A DNA stretch of 53,447 nucleotides, from assembly GCA_018433925.1 (NCBI GenBank), contig JAHDQI010000037.1, positions 1 to 53,447 of the forward strand, given 5' to 3'. The notes beneath the pieces were generated by a model. The model searched no databases. It worked only from the letters and a program-made list of their open reading frames with translations, and was not told where the DNA came from. The stretch's first letter is position 1; each line of letters opens with the position of its first letter. The stretch comes from Phycisphaerae bacterium (GTDB taxonomy: Bacteria > Planctomycetota > Phycisphaerae > Sedimentisphaerales > Anaerohalosphaeraceae). Shown one piece after another: positions 12,053-36,861 of the stretch. Position numbers and translations under genes: made by a program.

Positions 12053-13303
12053 TCAACTCTTATTATAGTAATTAGGAACTGCAGAAAAACACCCTTTTGC
12101 GTCTAATTTCAACCAAAATGCGACATCGTTCTCTGCCTCTTTCCCCGGATTTATACCGGTCGCCTTATTCACAAGCACTCGCAACCGGGCCTGGTCTGAA
12201 ACACACTGACCCTGAATCACATCGTCTTCCGTAAACGTGGTCATCAGAATCTCCTTATCGGTATGGCGGTTGTAATCATAAACAATATAAATCGTCCCGT
12301 CCGGGGCCTGAATCCCATCCGGATAGGAGACACCGAGCCGCTCATCCAGCATAAGCCCTCTCGACCAGGTTTTCCCCTCATCCTCAGATATATAAGCCAT
12401 CAAATGGGAACGCCTTGTGCGCTCATGAATTGCGCCATGCTTGACCAGCAACAGCTTTCCTGATTTTAGTGACATTAGAAACAATCGTGCCGTGGCATGT
12501 TGGATACGGCTGGGTCTGACGGTTGTCCAGGTTTTGCCTTTGTCCATTGAATAACTCTCCCCGATTCCATACTTCGTTCGAGTCAATAGCCAAAGTCGAC
12601 CATCCCGATGCTCCACGACATTGTATTCATCAAATTCCCGGTCATCGGCAGGGATACCCACGGCACCGCCAAGTGTAAATGTTTTCCCTTCATCCCCGGA
12701 AAGTAAAGGCCTGGAGGGAGCATCCTTATTCCATGAGCCGCTCGGCCACAGCCAGGTTCCATCGGATAAAACCGTTGGTTTATTAAAACAATTGATGTTC
12801 GGATAGGCAATCAATCGAGGGGCAGACCATGTGGGATTTTCCTCTCCTGGATTGCTGGTAAAAATGGCCCACAGCGAACTGTCCGGCCCTGTGAGTTTTT
12901 TGGGGTACTGATTCCAGATTAGCCAGAGCCGGTTATTGGGATCCAGCCATACCGCCGGCTCAGAAGCACGAAGCAAACCATCATGGTCAGGATCGATGAC
13001 CAATTTCAGATCCGACCATGTCCGGCCGTCGTCTTCGCTGGTCACTAACATAACATAATTGTCATCCCCTTCGCCTATTCCTCCGCCATACCAGGTTCCC
13101 CAAAGACGGCCGTTGGCGGCTCGGGCAATGCTGGGAATCCCCTGGAACATACGAACGCTGTCCGCATATTCCCCCCCCGGATTCCAGTTCAGCTTTGGTA
13201 CCCTCGATTTGCCCTGAACCACAAAGTCGAGAGCTGAACCTGCCGAAACACAGATATTCAGACAAATCACTGGAATCATTATAATACACAGATTACATTT
13301 CAT
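12053..13303 (-). CDS. Secreted BNR/Asp-box six-bladed-propeller protein (sialidase-superfamily, non-canonical)
   Basis: Start reassigned to ATG 13303 (MKCNLCIIMIPVICLNICVSAGSA), 10 nt after the upstream stop at 13314. Asp-boxes are SEDDGRTWS, SGDEGKTFT, SMDKGKTWT and SEDEGKTWS. FQGIPSIA stands where sialidases carry R-[IV]-P. Confidence 0.8.
   Translation of the reverse strand: MKCNLCIIMIPVICLNICVSAGSALDFVVQGKSRVPKLNWNPGGEYADSVRMFQGIPSIARAANGRLWGTWYGGGIGEGDDNYVMLVTSEDDGRTWSDLKLVIDPDHDGLLRASEPAVWLDPNNRLWLIWNQYPKKLTGPDSSLWAIFTSNPGEENPTWSAPRLIAYPNINCFNKPTVLSDGTWLWPSGSWNKDAPSRPLLSGDEGKTFTLGGAVGIPADDREFDEYNVVEHRDGRLWLLTRTKYGIGESYSMDKGKTWTTVRPSRIQHATARLFLMSLKSGKLLLVKHGAIHERTRRSHLMAYISEDEGKTWSRGLMLDERLGVSYPDGIQAPDGTIYIVYDYNRHTDKEILMTTFTEDDVIQGQCVSDQARLRVLVNKATGINPGKEAENDVAFWLKLDAKGCFSAVPNYYNKS
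12062..12128 (-). promoter_or_regulatory. Promoter/operator module copy 1: minus-strand TATAAT plus two 21-bp-spaced direct repeats, upstream of 10088-11848
   Basis: attata at 12062-12067 reads TATAAT on the minus strand. TGCG cores are at 12098 and 12119. aacacccttttgcgt and caaccaaaatgcgac match AACACC-N4-TGCGA. The internal spacings (36 and 21 nt) equal those at 19304 and 36795. Confidence 0.7.
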
Positions 13304-13313
13304 CCTCGGTCTC

Positions 13314-14432
13314 TCATTCTTTTCGATAGCTCCGAAATCGTTTACGCCAATCTTTCGGTGTTGCGCCAACTTGCGAACGCGCATCAAAATAAGCGTCCAG
13401 ATTTTCCATCGGAATACCATCGTGCAATCCTCCCGGCGAACTCATCACAAATCCTGTAAAATCGGCGCATTTTGCGGCTACATCAAAAACCATTTTCCGC
13501 ACTTCACCGGGAGTTCCGAAAGTCAATTTGGCGGTTTCGATACCGCCGATAAAAAGCCCGCCGCGGGATCCAAAATTTTCGAGAATCACCTCAAGCGGTG
13601 TGGCAGGATTTTCGTAGAGCATACCGTCAACACCAACGTCCCGAAGTTTGGGAATAAAGGACGTCATATTACCATCCGCAACAAAGATGATCTTTTTTCC
13701 GAGATCCTTGGCCTGGCCCCAAATCTCAGGATAATGGGGGAAAATAAACTCATCATACCAAGACGGCCTAAAAACCGGACCGGCATGATTGGCCAGATCA
13801 TCATGAACAAAAACAAAAGGGGAATCCGAAGCCCTCGCCATTTCATTGACAATCGCTTTCGACTTTTGAACACAAGGAAGCAGGAATTGGTCGTGAAACC
13901 GCTGGGGTTGGCTCATGGCCGAAAGCATAAAGATCTCCCAGCCCAATACTTCCACCGCCCACATAAAAAGGGTTGTGTAAAGCATCGGATAATACAGACC
14001 AATATCCCCCAGGGCGGCCTGCCGCAAACGAATGTCTTCTGCGTCGCAAGAGTGAGGCACGGGGACAATCAAATCTTCATATTTCAAGGAATCGACATCT
14101 AATTCCCAAACATCTTCGACGGTTTTACAAGCATAGGTATGCCGAAAAGCGGTGTCGTAAACCCCCAGAGCCGCAAAACTGTATGGCTTGCGGGGATGAC
14201 GCCTGCATCGTCCTGAAGGAGTTGGAAAAGAGGCATTTTCGTTCTTCAACGGAACCCGCAGGATCAAATCCAGGCCCAGCGCCTCATAGGCCCGAAGATA
14301 CGCTTGATGCGTATCCATAAAAACATCCGTCCCGCTTACCCATTCAATGAGTTGTCGATGATTCAGGGTTTCCTTAGAAGGAATTTTCTCGGTCCGGGCC
14401 CCTTTGGCTCTATATAAAACATCTTGTTTCAT
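13314..14432 (-). CDS. Uroporphyrinogen-decarboxylase (URO-D)-like TIM-barrel family protein, cytoplasmic
   Basis: 372 aa with no signal peptide. The C-terminal half (KKIIFVADGNMTSFIPKLRDVGVDGMLYENPATP, then LFIGGIETAKLTFGTPGEVRKMVFDV) resembles the URO-D/MtaA-like family layout. The assignment is from memory only. Confidence 0.5.
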   Translation of the reverse strand: MKQDVLYRAKGARTEKIPSKETLNHRQLIEWVSGTDVFMDTHQAYLRAYEALGLDLILRVPLKNENASFPTPSGRCRRHPRKPYSFAALGVYDTAFRHTYACKTVEDVWELDVDSLKYEDLIVPVPHSCDAEDIRLRQAALGDIGLYYPMLYTTLFMWAVEVLGWEIFMLSAMSQPQRFHDQFLLPCVQKSKAIVNEMARASDSPFVFVHDDLANHAGPVFRPSWYDEFIFPHYPEIWGQAKDLGKKIIFVADGNMTSFIPKLRDVGVDGMLYENPATPLEVILENFGSRGGLFIGGIETAKLTFGTPGEVRKMVFDVAAKCADFTGFVMSSPGGLHDGIPMENLDAYFDARSQVGATPKDWRKRFRSYRKE

Positions 14433-14498
14433 TCTTATACATAGCTATACGAAAAAATACTCATTGGAGAATTATTTAAATGATCTCATCGTTCTCCG

Positions 14499-15638
14499 TT
14501 ACTTATTTGAGTCTGGTTTTTTATTGACCAGAATCCCCAGTTTCCCTCTCTTCGAAACAAGAGTTCCTTCCAAGATATCCTGTTCTGTAAATCTGGCCAA
14601 AAGAATTTCTTTTTCCTTGGTACGCGAATAATCATAGGTAATATATATGGTCCCATCCGAATCCTGTTGTCCATCGGGATAAGAAACCCATTTTCTTTCA
14701 TCCAACAGCAATCCCCCCGTCCATGTTTGACCGTCATCTTTTGATAAAAAAGCCATCATGTGACTACGGCCGGTCCTTTCATACAAAGGGCCGTTTTTCA
14801 CAAGAAGAAGATTTCCCGAGTGAAGACGCCGAATAAAAAATCTTGAAGACGGGTGCTTAACTGGTGAAGGGCGAAGGTCGCTCCATGAACAACCTTTATC
14901 CGTTGAAAAACTCTCCCCGATACCATAATTGGTCCGTACCCACATCCAAAGGGAGCCATCCTTTCTTTCCACAATCATATGTTCGTCAAATTCACGCTCC
15001 TGCGGCGGAATGTTCACGGAACCGACAAAGGAAATGGTTTGTCCTTGATTCAGCAAGGCGAATATTTTTGCACTCTGATCGGTGGTTCGCCAAGTGGAAA
15101 CGGGCAACAGCCATCGGCCGTCTGAAAGTACCGTCGGCTTACACATCATGATCCCGTCGGTCAGTCTTCTGGGAGAAGTCCATCGGGGTTTGGACTCATC
15201 GGGATTTTCCGTTACCATTGCCCATACGCCAGAGACGGAACAAAAACGAGCCCGGTCATCCTGCTGCGCCCAGAACAGCCATAGGCGCTCATCGGGATCA
15301 ACCCAGAGTTCCGGATCAAACGTACGGACCGGACCTTCTCCATCCGGATCTACGACAAATAACTCCTTCCACGTTGCGCCATCGTCTTCACTGCCGGCCA
15401 CAACGACATAATTATTGGAGTCTTCAGCCGGCGTTTTCCCCGCATACCAGGTCACCCATAGCCGTCCAGGGGCCGTAACCGCCAGGCTTGGAATCCCCTC
15501 GAACTGCCGTGAATCAGGCGAGGGATAATGATCCTGCATCGATTGGATGATTGTGGGCGGACTCAGAAAGTCCCCATACCCTTGAGCCCCGACAAGCAAG
15601 CAGGCAAACAAGACGGAATATACTACAATCTTTTTCAT
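14499..15638 (-). CDS. Secreted BNR/Asp-box propeller protein, paralogue of 12053-13303
   Basis: Signal peptide MKKIVVYSVLFACLLVGAQG. FEGIPSLAVTAPGRLWVTWYAG parallels FQGIPSIARAANGRLWGTWYGG in the paralogue. Asp-boxes are SEDDGATWK, STDKGCSWS and SKDDGQTWT. Confidence 0.8.
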   Translation of the reverse strand: MKKIVVYSVLFACLLVGAQGYGDFLSPPTIIQSMQDHYPSPDSRQFEGIPSLAVTAPGRLWVTWYAGKTPAEDSNNYVVVAGSEDDGATWKELFVVDPDGEGPVRTFDPELWVDPDERLWLFWAQQDDRARFCSVSGVWAMVTENPDESKPRWTSPRRLTDGIMMCKPTVLSDGRWLLPVSTWRTTDQSAKIFALLNQGQTISFVGSVNIPPQEREFDEHMIVERKDGSLWMWVRTNYGIGESFSTDKGCSWSDLRPSPVKHPSSRFFIRRLHSGNLLLVKNGPLYERTGRSHMMAFLSKDDGQTWTGGLLLDERKWVSYPDGQQDSDGTIYITYDYSRTKEKEILLARFTEQDILEGTLVSKRGKLGILVNKKPDSNK

Positions 15639-15967
15639 TAAAATGTCTCCAAATGCATCGATTTTCTATCCGGAAGTAAATGGACCCTGATACCGAATAT
15701 CCATACGAATTTAGTAGGCAACTTGACCTCTTCAGAAAATACACACAGTCGCGATTATGACTGATTTTTCTGCCGATGTATTATTGATCTTTGAAAAAAT
15801 AGAATTCCTCGTTTTCTCGTCACCCCCGCGCGGGCGGAGCTCCGGATACGTCGTAACACCCGGAATCCCACCCTCGCGGAAATGACAAATTGCTTTGTTA
15901 TTTTTTCAATAATCGATAGATATTTCCGTTTCAGGAGATCGTCTGAATCTCAAAAATAAAAAACGAT

Positions 15968-16804
15968 TTACCACCAGAACCACATTCCTGCTCCGCTTGT
16001 GTAACAATGTTCCAAACTGTCAAAGTGTTTCCAGTTAACATGTCCGTCCGCGTACGCAGTATTCCCTCCGTCCGGTTTTATGCCTGAATTGGCCCCCTCC
16101 CGAATAATTTCACGGGATTTATGATTTGAATTGTCAGATAAAGTTCCTCCGCTGAGAGTCGTAATGCCGCCGGGGATATCAAAAAACTTCCATTTACTTG
16201 AACTAATATTTACATCCATAATCATGGAGGCCGAACTGGCGGAGGGAAGTTTTGACAGTTTGCTGATCCATTGGGCTTTTGCACCATTAGCCAGTCTGTC
16301 CGGGAGGACAGAATTTCCGGCCGCATCGTATTTATCGAATGTGTATATTTCCGGCAGGACTCGATGTAAGTTTTTTTGCTCGTCGGTTGTCAGTGATCCT
16401 TCATCGCGCAGGGGCACCGGATTCGTGTAGGGTCCTCCCGTCGATGCAAGCCAACCATACTGCCACCAGCGTGCATCATCTGCTTTTTTCATCTTATTGG
16501 CCGGGCAGAAAAATGTTTTATTGTCGTCAAAACCGGCATATTGACTCATCTGATTCGTACTCCAGAAAGTCACGGTCCAAAGATAAAACCCGGATCCGGA
16601 CTGGGATCGGGGCACCTCTGAATCATGGTCATTTGCATAGAGAAGGGTGCCCAGGGCCTGCTGGCGAAGATTATTGGCGCACATGACCCTGTGCGCATAC
16701 ATCTTGGCGCGGCTAAGAGACGGCATGATAATCGCCAGCAGCAATGCGATAATGGCAATGACCACCAATAATTCAATTAACGTAAATGCCTTTTTCGCCT
16801 TCAT
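15968..16804 (-). CDS. Prepilin-type N-terminal cleavage/methylation domain protein (DUF1559-like)
   Basis: [30 protein letters not shown] at the N-terminus; C-terminal AYADGHVNWKHF. Confidence 0.85.
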   Translation of the reverse strand: MKAKKAFTLIELLVVIAIIALLLAIIMPSLSRAKMYAHRVMCANNLRQQALGTLLYANDHDSEVPRSQSGSGFYLWTVTFWSTNQMSQYAGFDDNKTFFCPANKMKKADDARWWQYGWLASTGGPYTNPVPLRDEGSLTTDEQKNLHRVLPEIYTFDKYDAAGNSVLPDRLANGAKAQWISKLSKLPSASSASMIMDVNISSSKWKFFDIPGGITTLSGGTLSDNSNHKSREIIREGANSGIKPDGGNTAYADGHVNWKHFDSLEHCYTSGAGMWFWW

Positions 16805-16921
16805 TTTCTTTTTCCCTTATCCTTATTACTCAATTTGAATTCGATACTATCATTACTATCCCATCCCGCAAACGACGATTCGTCCCGTACACAACTCACC
16901 CTATTATTTATTCTGCTCCGT

Positions 16922-16970
16922 GTGCATCGTCGTGTCCCCGCAATTTGGTCCAGGGTCGACGACGATGCAC
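16922..16970 (-). terminator. 12-bp perfect inverted repeat between CDS 17017-19080 and CDS 15968-16804
   Basis: gtgcatcgtcgt (16922-16933) pairs with acgacgatgcac (16959-16970) around a 25-nt loop. There is no U-tract, so terminator function is uncertain. Confidence 0.35.
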
Positions 16971-17016
16971 CGAAGCATAATTAATTTATAAAACGCATTC
17001 AATTACTGTTCACTCT

Positions 17017-19080
17017 TTATTCTACCGCATAGTTGGTCATAAGCCACGTTCCAGTGAGTTCGGCCAAATCCTCCAAATCAACCTCACAATCCCTGTTTAT
17101 ATCTCCCGGCAACCATTCAAAACCCGGTTGTGCTGCCGCATAAGAACAAGAATCGGCAAAGACGGTTACCTGTACAGTATCGGTGACCGTATACTCGCCA
17201 TCGTACACCTCGAGCTGAAGCACATAAATCCCGGTTTCTTTCAGCTCAGCAACAGCATTCTTAACCGCCGGATTAATAAAGCCAGAGGGATTCGAGTCAT
17301 TTGCATCCGTAACAATCGTCCAATTATAGGTTAGCGGAGCCACCAATCCATCATCGGTTACTGTAGGACTCATTGTCACCTGACGCGGCGGATCAGTCCA
17401 CCAAGTCTGACTATCTTCACCTGCATCCACTTCCGGCGTGAGATTAAAGGTATTAAACGTAAAGAAGGGGCCCATTACATCCTCAAGCCCATTCTTGTAG
17501 GTAGTAATCTGCCAGTAATATTGCTCACTCACGTCGATATCGACCAACACTGACTCAACCGATTGATTGGCCACAATCTTAGACATGAGAAGCAGATTCG
17601 GCTCTGTTCCAAAATAAACATCGCATGTCACAATATCGCCGGGCACGTTCGGTTCCGGAAGCGTCCACTGGAGCAGATCCAGCGTTGCTGATACGGTGCT
17701 GCCGTCAGCCGGGATTGGATTAAATAGGTGATATCCCCTTACTTCTGTAATGTCTTGAACCGAATCGTACACCACATCAATCCATCCATCACCGCCATAC
17801 GCGATGATTTTGCCGGCGGCTTTCAGATCGTCTATCTGTGTACGAGCATCCCAGTGAAGAATCAGTTTGCCTGGTCCTGCAAGATCAATCACCCCGTGCC
17901 CGGAGCTGTAATCAAGAATCACAAGTCCTGCGGAAGAGGTATTAGTTATCTCAACCGTACCCCCCTTCAGTTCAAAATACGTGCCGGTTTGTAATTTGAA
18001 ATATGAACTGATATTAATCTTGCCGCCGCTGACGATCCAATGCGACGGAGCTTCCGTATATTCGCTAAGTCTGAGAGTATACGTGTTGATTTCTCCGCCG
18101 GTCATCACAACATTACTGCTGGCGGTTGCGTAACTTCGCGCATCCATAAAGTTCCCCGTTACATTAATCGTACCACCGGACATAATGATCTCTGATTTAG
18201 CCCCAGCTCCTGCAACTAAACCCGGGGTATTAAGCTCGCCACCTTCCATAATAAGAGTGCCATGGGCATTCGCCCCGCTTACTCCAATCATTGCATCTGT
18301 TGGAAAAGTAGCCGTACCGCCGGTAATGCATAGAACACCTTCACAGGCCCAAGCACCACTTGTTTGACCCAAACGAAGTCTTCTGACATTTAGTGTACCC
18401 CCGTTGAGTTCAAAATAACCCTTGTTCCTGCCGGGAGTCCCATAATTGGCACCCACTCTAAAATAGTCTGCAGAAGACGTGGGTATCAGAACACTGCCAT
18501 CATTCACGATCCATTCCATTGTGCCCATTCCACCCAGCTGGATGCCCTGACCCATATACACGGTCCCGCCATCCATAATGATTAATCCATTGGCATCCGT
18601 GTCCGAACCCCTGAAATACATACCGTTCAACGTACCACCGGTCATATAGAGATAAGCATCACCGTCCTGTGCAAAATCCAAAATGTTACCGACGGTTATG
18701 GTCCCGTCGCTGATTTCCACATGCCCAACAGCTACCTCCGGACTCGAACTACCAGGCAAGGTCCAATCGATATCTACACCCAAGGTGCCGCCGGAAATTT
18801 GCATGGCTTGTGTCCCTGCACCTGCACCCGGACCAAAGAGAGCATCACACACCGCAGTTACTGTTCCGTCAATCACGGGACCCTGGGAAACAGAGGCATC
18901 TAACCACACTTCATCGTCTGCCGTCGGGACCTGATCAGTTGACCAGTTCTCCTCTGTACTCCACAAATCGTCCACGCCGCCTCCGTCCCAGGTAATTTCG
19001 GCGGCGATGGATGGATTGGCCAACAGGCCTACTGCCATGACAATAATCCAAACTACCCATTGTTTAACATAATCATTCAT
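17017..19080 (-). CDS. Exported beta-helix-repeat protein, 'head B + short tail' (G-G-T repeats + FN3-like + PKD-like + dockerin-like)
   Basis: GGAGGA lies upstream of ATG 19080. N-terminal anchor/signal MNDYVKQWVVWIIVMAVGLLANPSIAA. Repeats include MTGGTLNG, MDGGTVYM, LNGGTLNV, ITGGTATF, MEGGELNT, MSGGTINV, MTGGEINT, VSGGKINI and LKGGTVEI. The tail starts at PEVDAGEDSQTWW, runs through TVTDDGLVAPLTYNW and ends in GDINRDCEVDLEDLAELTGTWL. Confidence 0.85.
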   Translation of the reverse strand: MNDYVKQWVVWIIVMAVGLLANPSIAAEITWDGGGVDDLWSTEENWSTDQVPTADDEVWLDASVSQGPVIDGTVTAVCDALFGPGAGAGTQAMQISGGTLGVDIDWTLPGSSSPEVAVGHVEISDGTITVGNILDFAQDGDAYLYMTGGTLNGMYFRGSDTDANGLIIMDGGTVYMGQGIQLGGMGTMEWIVNDGSVLIPTSSADYFRVGANYGTPGRNKGYFELNGGTLNVRRLRLGQTSGAWACEGVLCITGGTATFPTDAMIGVSGANAHGTLIMEGGELNTPGLVAGAGAKSEIIMSGGTINVTGNFMDARSYATASSNVVMTGGEINTYTLRLSEYTEAPSHWIVSGGKINISSYFKLQTGTYFELKGGTVEITNTSSAGLVILDYSSGHGVIDLAGPGKLILHWDARTQIDDLKAAGKIIAYGGDGWIDVVYDSVQDITEVRGYHLFNPIPADGSTVSATLDLLQWTLPEPNVPGDIVTCDVYFGTEPNLLLMSKIVANQSVESVLVDIDVSEQYYWQITTYKNGLEDVMGPFFTFNTFNLTPEVDAGEDSQTWWTDPPRQVTMSPTVTDDGLVAPLTYNWTIVTDANDSNPSGFINPAVKNAVAELKETGIYVLQLEVYDGEYTVTDTVQVTVFADSCSYAAAQPGFEWLPGDINRDCEVDLEDLAELTGTWLMTNYAVE

Positions 19081-19303
19081 TTTAAATCCTCCGAGTTCAT
19101 GTAAAATCGTAACTAATTAATGTTTTACGCAACCATCCATAGATCGTATTTTCTGAAAAACACACCTCACACACTGATTATCTGAAGAAAAGCCCCTCTC
19201 TTGTTCCGGTTGTTTATCGGAAATGGGATGTCTTTGTGAGCACTCATTTCCACCACATTTTCACGCCTGTAGTTCATATATTTTATCGCTTAAATCAACT
19301 TTC

Positions 19304-19370
19304 ATTATAGCAATAACGCATTTCAAAAAAACACCTTATTGCGTTTATTTACAACCATAATGCGACATCG
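19304..19370 (-). promoter_or_regulatory. Promoter/operator module copy 2, upstream of 17017-19080
   Basis: attata at 19304-19309 reads TATAAT on the minus strand. TGCG cores are at 19340 and 19361. The repeats are aacaccttattgcgt and acaaccataatgcgac. It ends in the same tgcgacatcg as copy 1. Confidence 0.7.
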
Positions 19371-19539: not shown

Positions 19540-21495
19540 TTATCGAACAGGAATCTTATAAAGTGTTATGCTAACTGGTTTTATTGTGATCTGCCCAATC
19601 CTATCCGTCGGCTGAAGTCGCTGAATCTCAATAGCCGGAGGCAATTCAGGATCGTTGTAGGCCTTGGGATTTTCATGGGTGATAAGCCAGCCCTCCGCTT
19701 TTCCGCTTGGAGAGACTGATTTCAGGTCCAGATTGACTTGATAGATATCATGGGTCGCATTTACAAAACCAACCGTCAGGAATTTCCGGTCTTCAGTCAG
19801 AGCGGCCGAAACATCCAGTTTTTCACTCCAGCCGCTTACCTGCACAGGGATCGTGCCGAACTCTTTACGATAGAGCATCAGCGGATAACCGGTGGCGTCA
19901 AATGCGGCGGCGGTTTTCGTCGTCTTGATGCAGCCGATGACATTGACTGTCTGGGCGTAGTTCGCCATATAGCAGATATCTGTATTGCGGAAGTATTCGT
20001 GCAGGCCCGCTGCGATGCCGAGGGCATCTTTCATGAAAAAACGTGTTCCTATCTCTCCAAAAACATCCGGGCCATACCAGTAATTCCATTCATCCATGAC
20101 AATGCGGATATCTCTGCCTTTCAGCGAATCGATTGTCTGGCGATAATTCCGATGGGCCCGGCATTTTTCTTTGATTCGTTCGGGGATCTGACGGACATGG
20201 TCTGTAAGATCAGGCAGATCCTTCCGACAATAGAAATGTTCACTGATCAAATCCATATGGCCAGCGCAATGGCGAAGCATTTGTTCAGACCAGTTTTTAG
20301 TAATTTCTCCGACAGCAATGGTTTGGATCGATGGATCCACTTTTCGCATCATGCTATCCACCCAGTTATGCTTGAGAACATAATGGCTGATGTCCATATA
20401 CCCTAATTGCCACCGCCCGAACATCTCGTTTCCTACGCACCACCATTTGACCCCAAACGGCTCCGGGTGTCCGTTTTGGGCACGCCACTTCCCGTTTGCT
20501 GTCTTCGCTGTTCCATTGCAGTATTCCACTTCAGCCGCAGCAGAATAGGCATCGCCAAAACCGGTGTTCACTGTAATCATGGGTTCTGTGTCGAGAAGTC
20601 GGCAGAATTCGATAAATTCGTGAAGTCCCATGTCATTCGTTTCAATGCCTGTCCAGGCAGGATTGGTCCGGGTCGGCCGTTTATCTTGATCCCCGAGCCC
20701 GTCCCGCCAGTCATACCCGCTTACAAAATTGCCCCCCGGCCATCGGTACACGGGGCTATCCAGTTGCCTGAGAAGTTCCAGCGTATCTTTACGAAATCCT
20801 TTTACATGGTCTGCTGGCATCAGCGAAACAGCACCGACAGTAAAGGATCCTTGGCCGCTGCCGGATATTTCCAGACGGGCATTGTCTGCATTGTCTTCGG
20901 CCGTAAATTTCAGCGGATACGTTTTGAATGCCCCAGAGAGCTTTTTAATCGTTATACTCTGCCGCCCCTGCTGATCGTCAGACCAAACCAGAGAAATCTG
21001 TATCGGTCCGGACTTGCTGCCTCGAAGAACAATGCGGCCGGTGTATTCTTTGCCTTTGAGCAGCGCCAATTCCTCTTGATAAATACCGGTTTTTTCGCCC
21101 CTTGGCGTAATCAAGGGACAATGTTCACCGGAAAGCGGATGGTCTGTTGTCATAGTAACCGAATCTTTGGGACCGATGACTTTCCACGGTGAGTCAGTCA
21201 AAACTATTGCCTGGTTCTTGGTTGTTTTCCAGATATCCCCTTTAGCAGGTACAGCATAATAAAATTTGCGGTCATCGAGCATTTCGGCCCAGATACCTCC
21301 GTAAATACACTGTCCAAGATGCTCAATGAACTGTCCGTAAATGTACTTGGAGATGGGCTCCATGGTTTGGCCCGGATCAATTTGTACCTCTGCTGAAACG
21401 GTTTTAGCCTCGGGCTGTTCCGCTTTTAGAGGAATTGAAAAAGACGAAAAAAAACTCATGATTAAGACGGACACGAAAAGTTGATTTGTATTCAT
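19540..21495 (-). CDS. GH51 alpha-L-arabinofuranosidase, secreted
   Basis: Signal peptide MNTNQLFVSVLIMSFFSSFSIPLKA. YRWPGGNFVSGYDWRDGLG and WCVGNEMFG (acid/base Glu context) are hallmark GH51 motifs. Size is 651 aa. Confidence 0.85.
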   Translation of the reverse strand: MNTNQLFVSVLIMSFFSSFSIPLKAEQPEAKTVSAEVQIDPGQTMEPISKYIYGQFIEHLGQCIYGGIWAEMLDDRKFYYAVPAKGDIWKTTKNQAIVLTDSPWKVIGPKDSVTMTTDHPLSGEHCPLITPRGEKTGIYQEELALLKGKEYTGRIVLRGSKSGPIQISLVWSDDQQGRQSITIKKLSGAFKTYPLKFTAEDNADNARLEISGSGQGSFTVGAVSLMPADHVKGFRKDTLELLRQLDSPVYRWPGGNFVSGYDWRDGLGDQDKRPTRTNPAWTGIETNDMGLHEFIEFCRLLDTEPMITVNTGFGDAYSAAAEVEYCNGTAKTANGKWRAQNGHPEPFGVKWWCVGNEMFGRWQLGYMDISHYVLKHNWVDSMMRKVDPSIQTIAVGEITKNWSEQMLRHCAGHMDLISEHFYCRKDLPDLTDHVRQIPERIKEKCRAHRNYRQTIDSLKGRDIRIVMDEWNYWYGPDVFGEIGTRFFMKDALGIAAGLHEYFRNTDICYMANYAQTVNVIGCIKTTKTAAAFDATGYPLMLYRKEFGTIPVQVSGWSEKLDVSAALTEDRKFLTVGFVNATHDIYQVNLDLKSVSPSGKAEGWLITHENPKAYNDPELPPAIEIQRLQPTDRIGQITIKPVSITLYKIPVR

Positions 21496-21558
21496 CAGGC
21501 AGCCTTTCTATTTCCCAAAATGACAATTCGAACGTTTTCCTGCTTAGAATTCGTTTTG

Positions 21559-22845: not shown

Positions 22846-22887
22846 CCTTCAGAAAAGAGTTGTCATTGAGCCTGTAAAGGAGCATTT

Positions 22888-23979: not shown

Positions 23980-24030
23980 GACATCCTTTCTGCTTCTTTG
24001 TATTGATTCAGTATAGCAAAAGTATAGGTT

Positions 24031-27000: not shown

Positions 27001-27504
27001 CATCTTTCCATCCTGGCCGATCCAGAAATCTCTCACCCAATTGATATAACGATAATAATCGGGATTTGATTCCCAGGGCGCTATGGGAATGGCCTGCCCC
27101 TCCTCAACCTCTCTGGTCAGTCCGCTTTGAGAAGCGATATACCAGTCGTCTACGAACAGGATTTTTTTTCCTGCAACGTCAATCGGCTCGCTGGGAGCCT
27201 GTGGAGCAGTAATTGTTTGCTTGCGAATGCCGCGAATCATTGTACCCGTGTCCTGAGAGCCCCCCCCCACCTCTTGTATTAATACTTCATAATCACCATC
27301 CGGCCAATTGCTAATATCAATATTTTCTTCCTGTAGTCCTCCTTGTGAAGCATAGACTGTCACTTGTATTGGGGAAGCCGGAGACGTACCGGTGATATGG
27401 TCGCGAAATGTCAACTCAACATCAATGTCATTAACCCCCCAATATTGGAAAGCCAATATTGCAGTATTGTCGTTCAAATAAGCCGATCGAACGGATTCGA
27501 CCTC
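24031..27504 (-). repeat. Long-tail cassette copy 1 (about 3.47 kb), paralogous to 28964-32443
   Basis: Colinear similarity to 28964-32443 at nt level, roughly 80-90% by eye. It includes an 88-nt stretch with one mismatch (25350-25437 vs 30301-30388). Confidence 0.85.
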
Positions 27505-28848: not shown

Positions 28849-28963
28849 TTTAAGCCCCCCGCATGTTAAGATTAAAATAAACTTTTTGAATATTCTAACC
28901 AAAACTAATGATTTCATTATGTTTGTTTATTCCTTATTTTGTCAATTTTCATTAAACACATAT

Positions 28964-31900
28964 CTAATCACATTCAGGGACAGTACAAGCCAACCAGTTT
29001 TCCGCTAACACAGCCAAATCTCTGATATTCACTTTGCAGTCTTCCGTCAGATCGCCGGGGGGAATCGGATCACACGCAGGGGCGGTACAAACCAGCCAGT
29101 TGGCCGCCAGCACCACCATGTCTTCAAGAGTTACCCGGCAGTCTTCCGTCAGATCGCCCGGAGGAATCGGATGAAGCGCATCGCCGCAAACACCCAAAAA
29201 CGGGGTCGAACCATATTCATAAGCCCCCATGTCGACTGTTGTATTCGAAATTCGATTGTTGCCGTCAATATCCGCCAGAAGATTGGCCGGGACAACCGCA
29301 TTATTTCCGCTGTCAATACAAGCAGACGGAATCGTCAGCCGATAATCATCATCTTCCGTACCGGCAACATGATCCGCACCCTCCGGGTCTATAAAGTTGG
29401 GAAGTAAACTGACATTTCCTTCGCCCGGCCAGCCGCCGTATACATTGCTGTACTCAACCGAGAAAAGATCTGAATTGTAGCTTATTTCACTGTTGCCGTC
29501 CCATAATATGGAGTTTCTGACGGATACTACCGCAGTGCCGCTTGAAGTTCCCGATATCCCTTTTCCGCTAATCATTGCGGCATTTCCCGCAAAGGTACAA
29601 TTGATAATATCACTGCTTTGAGTATCAGAAAATTGATTGGCGCCAAGTTGGATGGCGCCGCCTCTGCCTGCCTTATTGCCGTTAAATACACAGTTTCTGA
29701 TATGGGCAGTTGTTCCGGGCTCCATCATAATAGCACCGCCATAACCCACATTCGTCAGACTCAGCGTTGTTTGATTGCCGATAAAGTAACTGTTGGATAT
29801 CACAGGCGAGTCTGCATCCCAGTTCGAAACGGCGCCGCCGTATCGTGTTTCAATTGTTTCCGTGCTGCCGCCATTTTCAATGAAAATACAATCATCAATT
29901 TCGACATCACCGCTGTATTGTAAGCGGATAGCACCGCCGCTGCGGCTGATATTTTTCTCAAACCGGCAACTCTGTATCTTCATCGACGATTTTCCTGCAT
30001 ATATTGCCCCGCCATAAGTAGTTGCGCTGTTTCCTGTGAAAGTGCAATTGCGAAGGGTCGGAGAACCAGTCGTCCAGACAATTAGACCACCTCCTGCATT
30101 ATGCGGTGACGCCGCATCCCCGGCACGGCCTCCGGTAATAGTAAACCCATCCAGAATCGTTGCCGCATCCGTATCATCCCCAATAATGATATGACGGGAA
30201 TTCTCATCATTATTAGTAAAATTAGGTCCGTCATCGCCGGCTAAGTCACCGGAAAGAATCGTTTCGTGATTTTTATAATCTCTCTGGGAAAGAGCGGTCT
30301 CCGACCCCGCAAAGCCGCCGTAAACAGCAACGCCGTTCTTCAGCTCAAACGCCTCATAGCAGGCAAGATCAGCATTCACATCCTGCGTAGGTTTATAGAC
30401 CCCCTCAGCAACCCAGATTTGGTCGCCGTATTCAGCGCTGGCCAGGGCATTCTGGAGATCGCAAAAGGCATCGGCCCAACCGGAGCCGTCATTTTGACCC
30501 GTCGCATCCGCATCTACATATATCACATTGTTATAACCGCCAAAATTCAAGCTATATAATTGGCCTTTGTAGATTGTAATACGAAGTTTTACGGGTTGAT
30601 TGGGAAGATCCGTTATGCTCCGGTCGTTCCAGCGCAGCGGGGAATTGACCGAGTCGCCCGCAAATAATGCACCGGAATCCCCCGAATACTCAGGCAGATC
30701 AGTTCCATACTGGTCCAGTACCTCAACCAAAATATAGCCATTCGGATCCGTCTTGGCATTAATATTTAATTTGGAACCGGCAGACAAAATCTTGGTTGTC
30801 ATCATTCCGGTATCGGTTGCCTGGCCCAGCCGGACCCAGCCGTCTTTGCGATATTTAATCAATGCCGGAGTGATCACCATATTTTTGGTTGCATCAACGA
30901 TGTGATCCCATGACGAGCCGTACCAGTCCCAAATCTCAGAATCGGGAATTCCGCCCTCCCCGGCAAGCCGACCCTCGAATCGATTCAAATAATAGTCTGT
31001 GGTTATATAAGAGCGGTCTTTTCTGTCATAAGCCGTAAGAAACATAAAGTGCAGCACATTGATTCCAAAGATCGGCTCAAAATATTCCCTGCCGTTGTCC
31101 AGTCTGGTTCGACTCTCTGGAAAATAAGAGTAACCAAAATTCCAACTGCCAAATTCGCCGTTCTCTAAAAATGGCTGTTGACTAAATCGGTTCCACAAAA
31201 TACCGTCTCGGCTGTAAGCTAAATCAGCAGAGAGCTTCTGATCTGCCTGATCATACATTCGGACATAGCTCAATTCCAGGGCATGTTCTTCTTCATCAAA
31301 AACAAAAACTCCGTAATGCTGAAGTGCAAACGTTTCACATTCATCAGGAACTTCAAAATACGCAGGGCTCCAGGTCACGCCGTCCTGACTACTCCAGGCA
31401 ACCAGGATTCTGCTTGCGAGAATGTTATCATAATAGACTCTAAGAGGGTCATTTCGGGGAATATTACGAGTCTGATAAAATCGAAGCGTATTGCCGTCCC
31501 TGCTCAAGTGTTCCGGACCATAATTATCATTTGCATCCTGCCATTGACCGATTTCGTTGTCCTCAAATTCCCCTTTAACCCGGACAATGGGTTCGGGCGT
31601 TAAGATCAGGTATTCACCATTAGGTCTTTCCCATACGGCAATCCGACACCAGTAAGGTATGGTGATATCCCCCAACACCAGGCCGGGCTTGACCTTGTAC
31701 ACAGAAACCTGACTCAAATTAACAGGGCCATCCTCTTCCGGATCATAGTAGCGATAGCTCGGAGTCCCTAAAAACAGATTCTTCACTTTGGTTTTATCAA
31801 ATGTGATCATGTCATAACCGTAATCACGATCCTCCGGCTCCGCCGCAACATCCCAGTTTTCGTAATCGTCGCTAACGACCCAGTACTTCAATTCATCCTG

Positions 31901-32443
31901 GGCGGCTCCATTGGACATTCCATTCCTGCCATATAACTCTACATACATCTTTTGGTCCTTGCCGATCCGGAAATCAGTTACCCAGGTATGATAACGAAAA
32001 TAATCAGGATCGGTCTTCCAGGGCTCAATAGGAATGGTCCGGCACGGCTCAACCTCTCGGTTCAGCCCGCTTTGAGAAGCGATGTACCAGTCATCCACAA
32101 AAAGCATTTTTCGGCCTGCCACATCAATCGGTTCAGTTGGATCTGGCGGAGCAACAATTGTTTGCTTGCGAATGCCTCGAATGAGCAGACCCGTGTCTTG
32201 ACCGTCCTCTCTAACTTCCCGTATCCGCACTTCATAATCACCGTCAGGCCAATTGGTAATATCGATATTTTCCTCCTGCAATCCCTGGGAAGCATAAACC
32301 GTCACTTGCATCGGAGATACCGGAGAGGTACCAGTTACAGGGTCGCGAAATGTTAATTCAACTCGGATATCGTCATCATCGAAGCATTGAAAAGCCAGCA
32401 TTGCAGTATTCTTATTCAAATAGGCCGATCGAACAGATTCCAC
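28964..32443 (-). repeat. Long-tail cassette copy 2 (about 3.48 kb), paralogous to 24031-27504
   Basis: See copy 1. The junction with head A lies between the FLCN codons and VESVRS (V codon at 32441-32443). Confidence 0.85.
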
Positions 32444-33397
32444 CTTAAGACGCTCACTTAACAACAACACTTCATTACATAGAAAATGGCTCGGGCCCAA
32501 AGCACCATCCGAAATCCGCACTTCGTCGATCAGTCCCTGGTATCGATTCGTATGGACTTTATTCACCAATTCACGGTAAAATACCCAACTCCCACCGTGC
32601 CAGGTGGACGCGATGTCATGATCCGTACTCAGGGTCGTATCCGGACTGCCGGATGATGTTATATCCAGGGCGGCTGCCACCTCTGTTTCCCCTCCCTCAG
32701 TAATATTGGTCAAATACAGCGTCAAGGTAATTCCATCACTTACGACTGCCGCATGATACCACGTGCCTGTTAGCCCTGTCGGATCCGTACTGTAATCAAA
32801 TCCCTGTATGGCGTTAGAAGCAGACTGAACCACATGTTTATAGCCGGATACATCGACGAAAAATGCCTCCACCGACAAATTGCTCATTTTGACGCGAAGC
32901 ACAAAGGCGGCGGCCCCCGGCTCTGCCGTACAAATATTATAAGCATCCCGATTTACAATGGTACCGTACTCGCCGGCTCCCGGGGGATCCTGTACGTTTC
33001 CCGGATTAAAAATCGCCTCCACTGTAAATTGAGCCGGAGCAATCCGTTCCGCGTCAATGCCGGAGGGCATGCTGTAGGCCGAGTAGGTAAGCGTTCCGGG
33101 CTTGGTCCCCCAGTTTTGCATACTGAACTGATTCATCCGTCTCGTTTGCGGAACAACGGAAAAAGGCAGATTATTTCGAAACCAAAACGAACTGTTATTC
33201 GGAGCATCCGACCAAACTTTTACATGGTTTCCATTTCCTGAAACATCCGGGATGTCCTCCGAATAATAATACCCATCCTGTTCGGTCGGAACCACTGTAT
33301 TGGCGGGGCCTGCATCAAATGTCCAATAAGCCACCGTCGCGGCATACAACGGAAAACCTGCCGCTAACACCCCCCAAACTATTGATTTAAACGTCAT
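28964..33397 (-). CDS. Giant exported protein, 'head A + long tail': LamG head plus the same ~1,160-aa core as 24031-28848
   Basis: GAGAGGA lies upstream of ATG 33397. Signal peptide [25 protein letters not shown]. LamG motifs are [14 protein letters not shown] and [16 protein letters not shown]. The core from [10 protein letters not shown] to the C-terminal [30 protein letters not shown] and [30 protein letters not shown] is colinear with the neighbouring gene. Confidence 0.85.
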   Translation of the reverse strand: [1477 protein letters not shown]

Positions 33398-33451
33398 CGT
33401 TGTCCTCTCTGAACGTCTTTCTTTTCCTGTTTTCCGGTCTGCCTTTGCCCG

Positions 33452-35818
33452 TTAATCGAGAGCTTTCTTTGGGACTATTTTGGCCTCAAAAAGCGGCCCC
33501 GCTATTTTACCGGGCCTGGCAGCCAGTTTCACTCGGACTTTTTCCTTGCCGCCAATCAGTTCTGTCGGTATCGAGTAGGCAATATCCGTATAGGGACGGT
33601 AATGAACCGTTTTCATGTTCTCCTCTGCAATTTTGACATCCTCGACCAGGATGTCAAAAATCCTGTCCTTTTTATTGTCACACCAGTAGGTCAGAATCAA
33701 TTCGGCCGAGGCAGTCCCCGGTGTTTTTACATCAAAAGCAAACCATCCGCCATCTTCCGCCTGCCGCCACACGTTGCCGGCGTGCTGTCCTGTGCTCAGG
33801 TTTTCACCCGCCACATTAAGGGATCGCTGAATCTGCAGGCATTCTCTTCGCTGTGAATCGGTGAAGGTATCCATGTAAACAGTATACTTTTCATTGATTA
33901 TCTTATAGAGCGGCATCAGCCGTATATCCACAGGAACAGCGTTTTCCTCGAATCCCTTACTGATTTTTTCACCCATAAACTCCAGCGGCCTGCCCGGGAT
34001 AGGTTTTATTCGACAGAGGATTTCCTGCGGGGCACCAATCAGCATCGGGAGAGGATCACCGACCAGCAGGTCTTTCAGCCGCAGAGAATGGCCCGGACCG
34101 TCCGGCGGCGATAGAGATTCCCCTCCGCTCAAATCCGCCGCCAGTACAATGGGGCCGTACAAAAAGACCATACGATCGGGTTTATCAGGCATCGTCTCCA
34201 CATGAAGCTTCATGGGCATTTTCATCTCCAGCACATCTCCGCTGCGGATACGATTGAACACAAGATAGCCCCCGCCATCCAAGACATCCTCCTGCGGCCT
34301 GCCATTGATCGTACAGGTCACACCCTCCGCCCAGCCGGGCTTACGAATCCGGAGCGGGCAAGGCATCGAACGCCCGGCAAAGGTCAACGTAAGAGTATCC
34401 GATTCCGGAAAATCGGTCTCCAGTTTAACGACAAGCCCCTTCTCCTTCCAGTTCAACTCAGAGGCGATAAATTGGTTCAGATACAGCCCATCTGCTCCGT
34501 AGGCCCAGATACACTCGCCGTATTTACTGTGATTTTCAAAACCGGTTCCCACACAGCACCAGAACGAATCAAAAGGCGTGCTGTACTTCTTCCTCGCAGG
34601 CATATCCAGAAAACCCTTGTACTTGATCATCCCCGTTTCGCGGCTCTGGTGTGCCAAAATATGGTTCCATAAAGCCTGCTCATAATAATCCATATATATC
34701 GTTTGGGGATTGAGAGCATATAAATGCCGCGACAGCTTAAGCATATTGTACGCACAGCAGTTTTCAGTCGTATGGTAAAGAAGCTCGGATAACTGATCCG
34801 GCTGTCCAAATCGTTCAACAACACTGTTGCCCCCATTGATAAAGGTATAATGATGAACCACTGTCTGATAAAAAAAATCGCTGATGGTTCCGAACTTCTC
34901 CTCCCCCGTCAGTTCATAAAGGCGCGCCGCCCCGATAATCTTGGGAATCTGGGTGTTGGAGTGCAAATTGGGCAGACAATCTTGTCTCCGGCTTAACGGA
35001 TCCAAAATAACATCATCATAGAATTGTTTGCTGATTGACAGGTATTTCTCATCACCGGTCAGGGCATAAACATCCGCCAGGACCTCCATCATCCCCCCGT
35101 ATTCACTGAGAAGCATTGTCTGCCATTGTTCATGGGTCAATGATCGGGTGACGTCAATGATCCAATCGGCCAGTTTTGTTGAAATTGACAAGGCCTTTTC
35201 GTTTTGCGTATACACATACACATCGCGCAAACCGGCCAGGACCTTATGGTGCACATACCAGGGTACCCATAACTCATTCAGGCGAAAATCATTGGGATTG
35301 ACGCGAATGTTTCCCTTGGCAATCTCCTCCTCGAAGATTTTTTTGCCGTTGGGAATGCCGGACACATACCCGTCCTGATGGACATTCTGGCATGTTGCAA
35401 GTTCATCCACGATATAGTCAACCCTCTTTTTTAAATCCGGGTCTTCGGTGGCTGCGTAAGCCATGGAGACCGCCGAAAGATAATGACCCAGTGTATGTCC
35501 CGTCAGCGTTGAGTCTTCCCAGCCGCCGTAGACCGGGGCCTTCGGTTCAAATCCCGCTTCCTTGTGGAAACCCGACAGGAGCCGATCCGGCTCAAGTGAT
35601 TTCATCCAGGCAATATTCCGGCTCATCGCCTGCCTGCAGGGCCCATCCAGCAAACGGACGTCTTGCAGTCGAAATGAGTAAACCGCAGGTTTTTTCGCCA
35701 ATGTCACTTGAAGCGGATATCCCAAAATCAGGGAATCCGCTTTTGCACAGAGAGTAACAGCGAAAAAGATTCCGATCATCAGGATCACAAAAATATATCC
35801 TATACTTAAACCCTTCAT
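33452..35818 (-). CDS. GH127 (DUF1680) beta-L-arabinofuranosidase-family glycosidase, secreted
   Basis: LTGHTLGHYLSAVSMAY, TENCCAYNMLKLSRHL and FWCCVGTGFENHSKYG form the Cys-rich Zn/catalytic motif set of GH127. Size is 788 aa with an N-terminal hydrophobic signal. Confidence 0.85.
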   Translation of the reverse strand: MKGLSIGYIFVILMIGIFFAVTLCAKADSLILGYPLQVTLAKKPAVYSFRLQDVRLLDGPCRQAMSRNIAWMKSLEPDRLLSGFHKEAGFEPKAPVYGGWEDSTLTGHTLGHYLSAVSMAYAATEDPDLKKRVDYIVDELATCQNVHQDGYVSGIPNGKKIFEEEIAKGNIRVNPNDFRLNELWVPWYVHHKVLAGLRDVYVYTQNEKALSISTKLADWIIDVTRSLTHEQWQTMLLSEYGGMMEVLADVYALTGDEKYLSISKQFYDDVILDPLSRRQDCLPNLHSNTQIPKIIGAARLYELTGEEKFGTISDFFYQTVVHHYTFINGGNSVVERFGQPDQLSELLYHTTENCCAYNMLKLSRHLYALNPQTIYMDYYEQALWNHILAHQSRETGMIKYKGFLDMPARKKYSTPFDSFWCCVGTGFENHSKYGECIWAYGADGLYLNQFIASELNWKEKGLVVKLETDFPESDTLTLTFAGRSMPCPLRIRKPGWAEGVTCTINGRPQEDVLDGGGYLVFNRIRSGDVLEMKMPMKLHVETMPDKPDRMVFLYGPIVLAADLSGGESLSPPDGPGHSLRLKDLLVGDPLPMLIGAPQEILCRIKPIPGRPLEFMGEKISKGFEENAVPVDIRLMPLYKIINEKYTVYMDTFTDSQRRECLQIQRSLNVAGENLSTGQHAGNVWRQAEDGGWFAFDVKTPGTASAELILTYWCDNKKDRIFDILVEDVKIAEENMKTVHYRPYTDIAYSIPTELIGGKEKVRVKLAARPGKIAGPLFEAKIVPKKALD

Positions 35819-35924
35819 CTGTTATCCTTTTTTTCTTAATAGAATTTTTATGAGAACAAAACGTATGATATATTTACGATCTTAACGGCCGTGTCAATTT
35901 GCCAAAGTTGCTTATTTCCTGTAA

Positions 35925-36686
35925 TCATTTCTTTATTTGCTCGACACGAGAGATTCCCCCAATGTTTCTTCTGTTCCTGTCTTCCGCAGTGTAGATTCGA
36001 TCCCGGACAGGTTTTGGATTCAACAGGATGCTCATTTGGGACAGACTCTGATAGCATAACTTGGTTATGCCCCCCCAGTCTCTGTCCGCAATCTTCGCTC
36101 TGGGAGCGATCCAGGAGCCCCCGACGGCCGTGACCAAGTCCTCTTTCAAATAGCAAAGAAAATTACTCTCATCAATCCCTCCCAAAGGAATAAAACGCAC
36201 CCCCATGTGAATATAGGGGGCAGCCATACATTTTAAATAGTGAATGCCGCCGAAAGGTTCCGCAGGGAAAAATTTTAGATGTTTATAGCCATAATCTAAT
36301 ACGATTTGAATATCTGACGGCGTCAAAACACCCGGTGAAAATGGAAACTGGAGATCCTGGGCCTTTTCTAATACGGCTACATTGATACCCGGAGAGACGG
36401 CAAAGTTGGCCCCGGCCTCTTTCGCGTTCAGGAGTTGTTCCTGGGTAATTACCGTACCGGCCCCAATCAGAATCTGCGGCAATTTATTGGCGATATTCTC
36501 TATCGCTTTTAGTGCACAGTCTGTTCGTAACGTCAGTTCTATACAATGGATTCCGGCATCAAATAAAGTTTCCGCCAGTGGAAGAGCCTGATCCAAATCA
36601 TCCAACACAACCGTGGCAATAATTTTTTCTTTTCGGATTCGATCAAAAACATCTTCTGAATTATACGCGTCCATCATCGGCTCCAC
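35925..36686 (-). CDS. eda: 2-keto-3-deoxy-6-phosphogluconate (KDPG) aldolase with ~35-aa C-terminal extension
   Basis: GTG start at 36686, with AAGGAAA upstream. IATVVLDDLDQALPLAETLFDAGIHCIELTLRT, GAGTVIT, LKFFPAEPFGG and GGSWI match the Eda fold. ATG starts at 36677 or 36674 are also possible. Confidence 0.8.
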   Translation of the reverse strand: MEPMMDAYNSEDVFDRIRKEKIIATVVLDDLDQALPLAETLFDAGIHCIELTLRTDCALKAIENIANKLPQILIGAGTVITQEQLLNAKEAGANFAVSPGINVAVLEKAQDLQFPFSPGVLTPSDIQIVLDYGYKHLKFFPAEPFGGIHYLKCMAAPYIHMGVRFIPLGGIDESNFLCYLKEDLVTAVGGSWIAPRAKIADRDWGGITKLCYQSLSQMSILLNPKPVRDRIYTAEDRNRRNIGGISRVEQIKK

Positions 36687-36794
36687 ATAGTCGATTTCCT
36701 TTTGGACTCTGCCTGTTTCATTGTTTTCTCTTACGTAAAAAAACAGGATTAAGTCCCCTTTTTTTGCTAACTCGCATATTGCTTTATCATTTTA

Positions 36795-36861
36795 ATTATA
36801 GTATGTTATGGAAGTATAAAAACACCATAATGCGAATAATAAACACCTTTATGCGACACGG
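36795..36861 (-). promoter_or_regulatory. Promoter/operator module copy 3, in the eda / AraC-type regulator divergent intergenic region
   Basis: attata at 36795-36800 reads TATAAT on the minus strand and faces eda. The repeats aacaccataatgcga and aacacctttatgcga have TGCG cores at 36831 and 36852, 21 bp apart. The module ends 27 nt before the regulator ATG at 36888. Confidence 0.7.

Follow-up and report, generated by a model that had tools for sequence, protein, structure and literature searches.

We analyzed a window of 53,447 nt (the whole stretch of DNA under study) from contig JAHDQI010000037.1 of a Phycisphaerae bacterium of the Anaerohalosphaeraceae (assembly GCA_018433925.1). In this window, a promoter/operator module of 67 nt occurs three times on the minus strand, exactly at the coordinates given by an earlier reading of the DNA made without database searches (the sequence-only reading). 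Module 3 (36795..36861) precedes an operon that starts with eda and stops 27 nt short of the ATG of a gene on the plus strand that encodes a XylR-type regulator of 386 aa (36888..38048). Module 2 (19304..19370) lies 5' of the gene of a 687-aa secreted protein, and module 1 (12062..12128) lies 5' of the gene of a 593-aa secreted LamG/PKD protein. We consider it probable that these modules are activator-dependent promoters with tandem operators, likely for the adjacent XylR-type regulator.

The regulator combines a LacI/GalR-like sugar-binding domain with a C-terminal AraC-type double helix-turn-helix. Its Pfam domains are Peripla_BP_3 (9e-31), HTH_18 (1.2e-17), and a weak PBP1_XylR, and its residues 6-377 align with residues 7-385 of the E. 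coli XylR structure 4FE4 (E = 1.3e-47), which bears out its earlier assignment to the XylR/AraC type. It reaches no NCBIfam equivalog model, and its named homologues are from Sedimentisphaera, Limihaloglobus, and Anaerohalosphaeraceae. It carries the sole AraC-type DNA-binding domain encoded in the window and is the presumed binder of the repeats described below.

The predicted operon of module 3 (19540..36677, minus strand) was delimited from Pfam and NCBIfam annotation and from gaps lacking a terminator. It comprises eda (35925-36677, with a likely start at the ATGATG after GGAG), a GH127 gene (33452-35818), the genes of two giant PMP-repeat proteins (28964-33397 and 24031-28917), a 2-keto-3-deoxygluconate (KDG)-kinase-like pfkB (22888-23979), an Nramp-family transporter gene (21559-22845), and a GH51 gene (19540-21495). 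The intergenic gaps from eda to GH51 are 42-106 nt long and none contains a terminator-like hairpin. The best match to a canonical promoter in the cluster, TTGACA-18-CATAAT (11/12), falls between the two giant genes, at 28916-28945 (minus strand) in their 46-nt gap, and might allow constitutive internal transcription of the second giant gene, pfkB, Nramp, and GH51.

The predicted transcription unit of module 2 (12053..19080, minus strand; Pfam annotation) begins with the 687-aa protein gene (17017-19080), followed by a gene of an N_methyl pseudopilin-like protein (15968-16804), a BNR_2 gene (14499-15638), a URO-D-like gene (13314-14432), and a second BNR_2 gene (12053-13420). We found neither a module nor a convincing terminator between the 687-aa protein gene and these followers, and the unit thus probably extends into all four, which would make the regulon larger than the sequence-only reading stated. 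The unit of module 1 consists of the 593-aa protein gene (10088..11848, minus strand), whose likely start is the ATG at 11848 after GGAGG. A perfect 8-bp GC-rich hairpin, CCGCCTGA-ACCA-TCAGGCGG, lies at 9858-9877 between this gene and the convergent gene at 7553-9799 (plus strand), and is a likely bidirectional terminator closing the module 1 transcript.

The minus-strand sequences of the three copies form an ungapped alignment: copy 1 is TGTCGCATTTTGGTTGAAATTAGACGCAAAAGGGTGTTTTT-N17-TATAAT, copy 2 is TGTCGCATTATGGTTGTAAATAAACGCAATAAGGTGTTTTT-N17-TATAAT, and copy 3 is TGTCGCATAAAGGTGTTTATTATTCGCATTATGGTGTTTTT-N17-TATAAT. The -10 boxes at 12067-12062, 19309-19304, and 36800-36795 are all perfect TATAAT, as the sequence-only reading had it, and appear on the plus strand as ATTATA at 12062-12067, 19304-19309, and 36795-36800. 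That of module 2 is preceded by TGC, making it an extended -10. Upstream are two half-sites. The proximal ones are CGCAAAAGGGTGTT (12101-12088) in module 1, CGCAATAAGGTGTT (19343-19330) in module 2, and CGCATTATGGTGTT (36834-36821) in module 3; the distal ones are CGCATTTTGGTTGA (12122-12109), CGCATTATGGTTGT (19364-19351), and CGCATAAAGGTGTT (36855-36842), the last preceded by TGT. The geometry first described for the modules was recovered in all three copies, with TGCG cores at 12098/12119, 19340/19361, and 36831/36852, 21 bp apart, 36 nt from the start of the hexamer to the first TGCG, and 20 nt between GGTGTT and TATAAT. The half-sites are direct, not inverted, repeats and their period of 21 bp corresponds to two helical turns.

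The consensus first proposed for the half-sites, TCGCA-N4-GGTGTT, holds for both half-sites of copy 3 and is too strict for the other four. CGCA-N4-GGTGTT matches four of the six. The proximal half-sites of copies 1 and 2 read ACGCA, their distal half-sites end in GGTTGA and GGTTGT, respectively, and a longer TGTCGCAT is common to the distal half-sites. The conserved islands of the half-site are CGCA and GGTGTT, while the intervening N4 is variable yet A/T-rich. The proximal GGTGTTTTT stops 17 nt short of TATAAT, and the -35 position next to it, already described as weak, is indeed poor, reading GTTTTT or TGTTTT. A simple promoter scan called no canonical sigma-70 promoter in the eda/regulator intergenic region and did not locate the regulator's own promoter there. 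Elsewhere in the window, the counts of canonical promoter and terminator calls were at chance level.

To assess whether such an arrangement could occur by chance, we searched the window for CGCA-N4-GGT-N10-CGCA-N4-GGT with up to two mismatches. This gave exactly three matches where 0.37 were expected, and none of 100 shuffles gave as many. A half-site weight matrix with a spacing of 20-22 bp revealed no fourth tandem site in the window. Single half-sites with two mismatches occurred at chance level (51 matches vs 42 expected). Copies 1 and 2 are 80% identical across 85 nt, and their alignment extends through ~230 nt of leader. The likeness of copy 3 to them is confined to the CGCA and GGTGTTTTT boxes, the T-run, and CTATAAT, as expected from selection on function.

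The sequence-only reading had proposed to look for the motif in relatives. We compared the loci surrounding the regulator's closest homologues (labelled L001, L002, etc.) and found the module at orthologous positions, in the divergent intergenic region between regulator and eda, in L001, L003/L004, L005, L008, L051, and L052. The identities of the regulators range from 87% (L001), 76% (L005), and 75% (L003/L004) to 64% (L008) and 58% (both L051 and L052). The last two loci are from cultured bacteria, Sedimentisphaera salicampi (CP021023.1) and Limihaloglobus sulfuriphilus (CP019646.1), respectively. At the divergent loci, the regulator is opposite eda-pfkB, with Nramp and BNR_2 next in several of them. 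The alignment of seven intergenic regions (A3) has a mean column identity of 45%, and its invariant columns concentrate in GTCG.A..A.GG.G.TT...T.CGCA..A.GGTGTTT. Judging from this alignment, the module is a phylogenetic footprint in seven genomes whose flanks have diverged. The distance between the proximal half-site and the -10 is constant at 20-21 nt across the divergent orthologous loci. Most orthologues have half-sites spaced by 21 bp; the spacing widens to 22 bp in L008 and L017 and to 23 bp in L052. Such constancy between proximal half-site and -10, despite drifting spacing between half-sites, is what one would expect if the proximal subunit must contact RNA polymerase.

The synteny of eda, pfkB, Nramp, and BNR_2 beside the regulator is kept in L002, L003, L005, L006, L051, and L052. 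Three modules are present in L005, one each in front of eda, the orthologue of the 593-aa protein gene (p593), and an N_methyl gene. L002 and L006 each have a single module, followed by p593, N_methyl, eda, pfkB, Nramp, and BNR_2. The p593 orthologues with a module in these three loci are 54-76% identical. The operon fusion in L002 and L006 joins the 593-aa protein gene to eda and supports a common regulon; together with the modules of L005, it strengthens the earlier claim that the two genes are co-regulated. The proposed autoregulation is likewise supported by position. A half-site lies 10-40 nt 5' of the regulator ATG in the window, L001, L003, and L005. In L002 and L006, 340 nt separate the full module from the regulator, yet a solitary TGTCGCAT-N3-GGTA half-site is found ~30 nt 5' of the regulator ATG amid diverged sequence, and L017 has a similar lone half-site 5' of its regulator, with the full module elsewhere.

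We then scanned large sequence collections with the strict pattern GTCGCAWWWDGGY-N10-11-CGBRWWWDGGTGTT. It was found in 14 stretches among 596 Gb of species-representative genomes, with Planctomycetota in every title naming a phylum, and in 28 stretches of a metagenome collection, i.e., in 42 stretches of both collections together. A slightly looser pattern, applied to all gathered sequences including the window, provided 41 distinct modules. In 38 of them, GGTGTT is followed at 18-23 nt by TAnnnT (background 9%), almost without exception at 20 or 21 nt, and a same-strand open reading frame (ORF) starts at most 700 nt downstream in 38 of the 41 as well. A widely dispersed repeat unrelated to promoters, which the sequence-only reading had named as its refutation, should look different: the stretches are few and the modules stand before genes. 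On these sequence criteria, the module appears to be a lineage-restricted promoter element.

Orthologues or paralogues of the regulator adjoin modules in L001-L006, L008, L010, L012, L015, L017, L019, L020, L030, L037, and L050-L052. Those beside the modules of L010, L012, L015, L017, L019, L020, L030, L037, and L050 are paralogous XylR-type regulators with 40-58% identity, and many modules are less than 400 bp from a XylR-type paralogue. In L025, L009, L014, L044, and L046, modules are found in conserved synteny ~3.6 kb 3' of the gene of a stand-alone 142-aa AraC-domain protein. These small proteins (L025 6622-7050) are of MarA/SoxS-like size, with ~50% identity to the DNA-binding domain of the regulator, and the module downstream of their gene precedes the gene of a PEP-CTERM protein. 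More generally, the modules linked to paralogues or to 142-aa proteins stand before genes of PEP-CTERM proteins, pseudopilin-like N_methyl proteins, and large secreted proteins. Across the DNA-binding domains that we compared, the recognition helices [ST]RR.LERRF and.HI.RYF hardly vary. This fits a core motif common to the paralogues, and it implies that a site cannot be attributed to a particular paralogue from the core motif by itself. A specificity code in the variable N4 was considered and rejected: eda modules have mostly CGCAT and paralogue modules CGCAAAAT, and the p593-type modules of orthologous loci mix both. One may speculate, although we think it rather unlikely, that two CGCA-N4-GGTGTT half-sites with a -10 at 20-21 nt are a promoter code of the whole Sedimentisphaerales/Phycisphaerae clade, read by a radiation of XylR-type paralogues and by the 142-aa proteins. 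If so, specificity would lie outside the core contacts, and the domain-only proteins could be general competitors or co-activators. The result would be an interconnected network over secreted LamG/PKD, PEP-CTERM, and pseudopilin-like proteins as well as catabolic operons.

From the anatomy of the modules, their conservation, and their association with the AraC-type class of DNA-binding domain, all directly observed, we infer binding, activation, effector, operon extents, and the sign of autoregulation as follows. Each module would be a sigma-70-type activator-dependent promoter whose tandem operator is recognized by an AraC-type DNA-binding domain. The 14-nt half-site would be bipartite, its two boxes about one helical turn apart serving the two helix-turn-helix motifs of one subunit, and the 21-bp direct repeat would line up a dimer along one face of the helix. 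The proximal GGTGTTTTT, 17 nt 5' of TATAAT, would take the place of the missing -35 hexamer, and a protein bound there would recruit RNA polymerase in the manner of a class II activator. The most likely candidate for this protein is the XylR-type regulator at 36888-38048, and the conserved core of eda, the kdgK-like gene, Nramp, and BNR_2 suggests that its LacI-like domain probably responds to a 2-keto-3-deoxy sugar acid (KDG or a precursor) set free from a polysaccharide. The predicted regulon includes the eda-to-GH51 operon, the 687-aa protein gene with the genes downstream of it, and the 593-aa protein gene. The distal half-site by the start codon of the regulator probably provides autoregulation, more likely negative.

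Several observations weigh against this interpretation. Copies 1 and 2 are, by their similarity, related by duplication and are worth less than two independent observations. The near-identical core (GTCGCAAAATGGT...CGCAAAATGGTGTT) is also found beside regulators of 40-58% identity and beside the stand-alone 142-aa AraC-domain proteins. Other paralogues elsewhere in the genome could bind or compete at copies 1 and 2, whose assignment to the adjacent regulator is, on sequence grounds, less secure. In L007, where a 66% identical homologue stands in a different gene context, no module was found within the 14 kb examined; this homologue is probably a paralogue. The -10 is perfect in all copies and of the extended type in copy 2 (TGC-TATAAT), which makes basal, activator-independent transcription possible; it also makes repression by occupation of the -35 region possible. 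Finally, promoter rules in Planctomycetota are poorly established.

Some of these points would fit an account in which the modules are AraC-type operators, with copies 1 and 2 mainly bound by another paralogue encoded outside the window, or by competing regulators, and lying outside the adjacent regulon. The almost invariant recognition helices throughout the clade favor this possibility, as do the distal boxes GGTTGA and GGTTGT of copies 1 and 2, which are unlike those of copy 3. We nevertheless find it unlikely. The p593-type module of L002 and L006 drives, in its predicted position, the operon of eda, pfkB, and Nramp right by the orthologous regulator, the p593 and N_methyl modules of L005 are in the same cluster as the regulator orthologue, and the 53-kb window encodes no second AraC-type DNA-binding domain.

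We also find it unlikely that the tandem repeats are the operator of a repressor, covering the -35 region of promoters with a strong -10 and released by a sugar effector. The TATAAT is perfect in 3/3 copies, TGC-TATAAT is found in copy 2 and in the p593 module of L005, and the operator overlaps the expected contact position of RNA polymerase, all of which a repressor would accommodate. However, the -35 is consistently poor, the signature of activator dependence, and 38 of the 41 modules keep the proximal box at a fixed distance from the -10, a constraint needed for face-specific contact with the polymerase and not for simple occlusion. In addition, such a geometry supports activation by E. coli XylR, XylS, and AraC (with inducer).

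That the 67-nt unit is a non-regulatory duplicated or dispersed repeat (the relic of a duplication or a small mobile element), or a cis-acting RNA, is highly improbable and largely refuted: the likeness of copies 1 and 2 does run into the leader, but copy 3 has only the boxes in common with them, boxes are kept while flanks diverged at orthologous positions in seven genomes, the 42 strict-pattern stretches belong to one phylum among the named hosts, nearly all modules aim at a downstream gene with the -10 at a fixed distance, there are three copies in the window and one to three in each ~20-kb orthologous locus, all 5' of genes, and the repeats, being 5' of the predicted start sites, would be untranscribed from these promoters. 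We retain the reading of the modules as activator-dependent promoters, probably under the adjacent XylR-type regulator.

The leaders behind copies 1 and 2 were studied for other elements. At gathering thresholds, Rfam had no match anywhere in the window, and the leader folds of copies 1 and 2 were no better than those of shuffles (z = +1.31 and +1.53), which speaks against a known riboswitch or leader RNA. Sequence comparison revealed a conserved leader element, GTGTGTGAGGTGTG, at 11916..11929 and again at 19161-19174 (minus strand), with a third copy at ~18477-18490 in the p593 leader of L005. It has the form GTGTG(T)GAGGTGTG, preceded in copy 2 and L005 by TTTTCTTCAGAT.AT, and lies ~125 nt 3' of the predicted start site and 60-80 nt 5' of the start codon in leaders of ~200 nt. 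It is conserved across species and is outside Rfam and any stable fold. We rejected it as a third, O2-like looping half-site, as it has no weight-matrix half-site score and GTGT in place of CGCA. A conserved upstream ORF, suggested by eye in the leaders of copies 1 and 2 (MNSKRNNAIGMTIRRKTPF... and MNYRRENVVEMSAHKDIPF...), was rejected too: it is absent from the L005 leader, and the resemblance is probably nucleotide similarity only. The eda leaders of the four closest genomes (the window, L001, L003, and L005) have another conserved sequence, A7-GGGGA(C/T)T, ~30-45 nt 3' of the predicted eda start site (36725-36745 on the minus strand of the window).

The ORF of the BNR_2 gene at 12053-13420 runs through module 1, which lies inside its last ~24 codons; in other words, the operator and -10 of the next gene double as these codons (DVAFWLKLDAKGCFSAVPNYYNKS). 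This tail is not conserved: it differs from that of the paralogue, and the alignment with the L001 orthologue stops at residue 432/455. The listed ATG at 13420 is probably too far upstream, as a signal-peptide-like MKCNLCIIM... begins 39 codons in. In L001, the gene convergent with the regulator (3277-3474) is the orthologue of this BNR_2 gene, and the gene of the SSF/NanM protein (38069-40708 in the window) is missing at that place, which indicates that the cluster was recently rearranged. The Nramp-family gene, nominally from a family of divalent-metal transporters, is constant in the eda-kdgK operon of every orthologous locus. This suggests a role in sugar-acid transport, which would be unusual for the family.

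The large secreted proteins are related to each other. The two giant PMP-repeat genes (24031-33397) are tandem paralogues with 72-89% nucleotide identity across long stretches. Homology links the 593-aa protein to the N-terminal ~310 aa of the 1477-aa giant, and a 300-nt stretch of the 687-aa protein gene is 78% identical to part of that of the 1628-aa giant. Both giants and the 593-aa and 687-aa proteins have in common a C-terminal dockerin-like tail, GDIN.DC..DL.DL. On the other side of the regulator, a separate cluster for sialic-acid-type utilization (38069-48450 and 51015-52106) encodes an SSF transporter fused to a NanM-like epimerase, a GlcNAc 2-epimerase, a GDSL/SASA esterase, BNR_2 sialidase-like proteins, and a DHDPS/NanA-like lyase, with a GntR-family regulator nearby. 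This cluster has no module.

Transcriptional regulation in Planctomycetota, especially in the anaerobic polysaccharide-degrading Sedimentisphaerales, is almost uncharted, and our search of the literature on this motif or on regulators in Phycisphaerae revealed nothing relevant. The analysis gives a concrete operator and promoter geometry open to testing, and the two cultured carriers of the module, S. salicampi and L. sulfuriphilus, make the prediction testable. The predicted regulon ties a KDG-type catabolic core (eda, kdgK, Nramp, and BNR_2) to large secreted proteins. The motif can be used for regulon reconstruction across the lineage and perhaps for inducible expression tools. The proposed mechanism is textbook AraC/XylR biology, useful to the specialist and not mechanistically surprising.

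Among known systems, E. coli XylR has the same combination of a LacI/GalR-type sugar-binding domain and an AraC DNA-binding domain, with homology to the regulator over its full length. It binds sites of ~37 bp, two direct repeats beside a poor -35, and is presumed to recruit the polymerase (PMC3561964). The IA and IF operators of xylAB and xylFGH resemble the modules in having ~37 bp, direct repeats, and several promoters of one sugar cluster. The repeats themselves are unrelated, A-rich gaAa-a-a-AAT in E. coli and CGCA-N4-GGTGTT in the window. XylR controls xylose genes, whereas the predicted regulon of the window consists of eda, the KDG-kinase-like gene, Nramp, BNR_2, GH127, GH51, and the secreted LamG/PKD protein genes. 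The host is a planctomycete, and one of the operators directly adjoins the regulator gene, which is transcribed away from it. Neither the window nor the orthologous loci contain xylA, xylB, or xylFGH. With no xylA or xylB in the regulon, the effector is probably not xylose. Judging from its domains and gene context, the regulator is a member of the XylR architectural family and not a functional orthologue of XylR.

The regulator gene of the ara system controls its own expression and is transcribed divergently. By comparison with this system, a weight-matrix scan of the window gave no evidence of a remote O2-like looping site, and a CRP-like co-activator site was not identified. The modules are similar to the sites of AraC at araBAD I1-I2 and of MtlR, where a dimer occupies two direct-repeat half-sites of ~17 bp abutting the -35. 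The MtlR site at PmtlE spans at least 37 bp 5' of the -35, and both AraC and MtlR behave like XylS (PMC4514859). XylS, at the Pm promoter of the Pseudomonas putida TOL plasmid, also binds bipartite half-sites in direct repeat with a period of 21 bp. Its proximal site also reaches the -35 region. XylS differs from the window regulator in having an AraC-type cupin-like sensor instead of a periplasmic-binding-protein fold, in the spacing of its boxes (N6 vs N4), in its aromatic-acid effectors, and in its lineage. The XylS site is TGCA-N6-GGNTA-N6-TGCA-N6-GGNTA (PMC4514859). Compared with CGCA-N4-GGTGTT-N7-CGCA-N4-GGTGTT in the window, it is built from similar types of boxes, xGCA and GGxxx.

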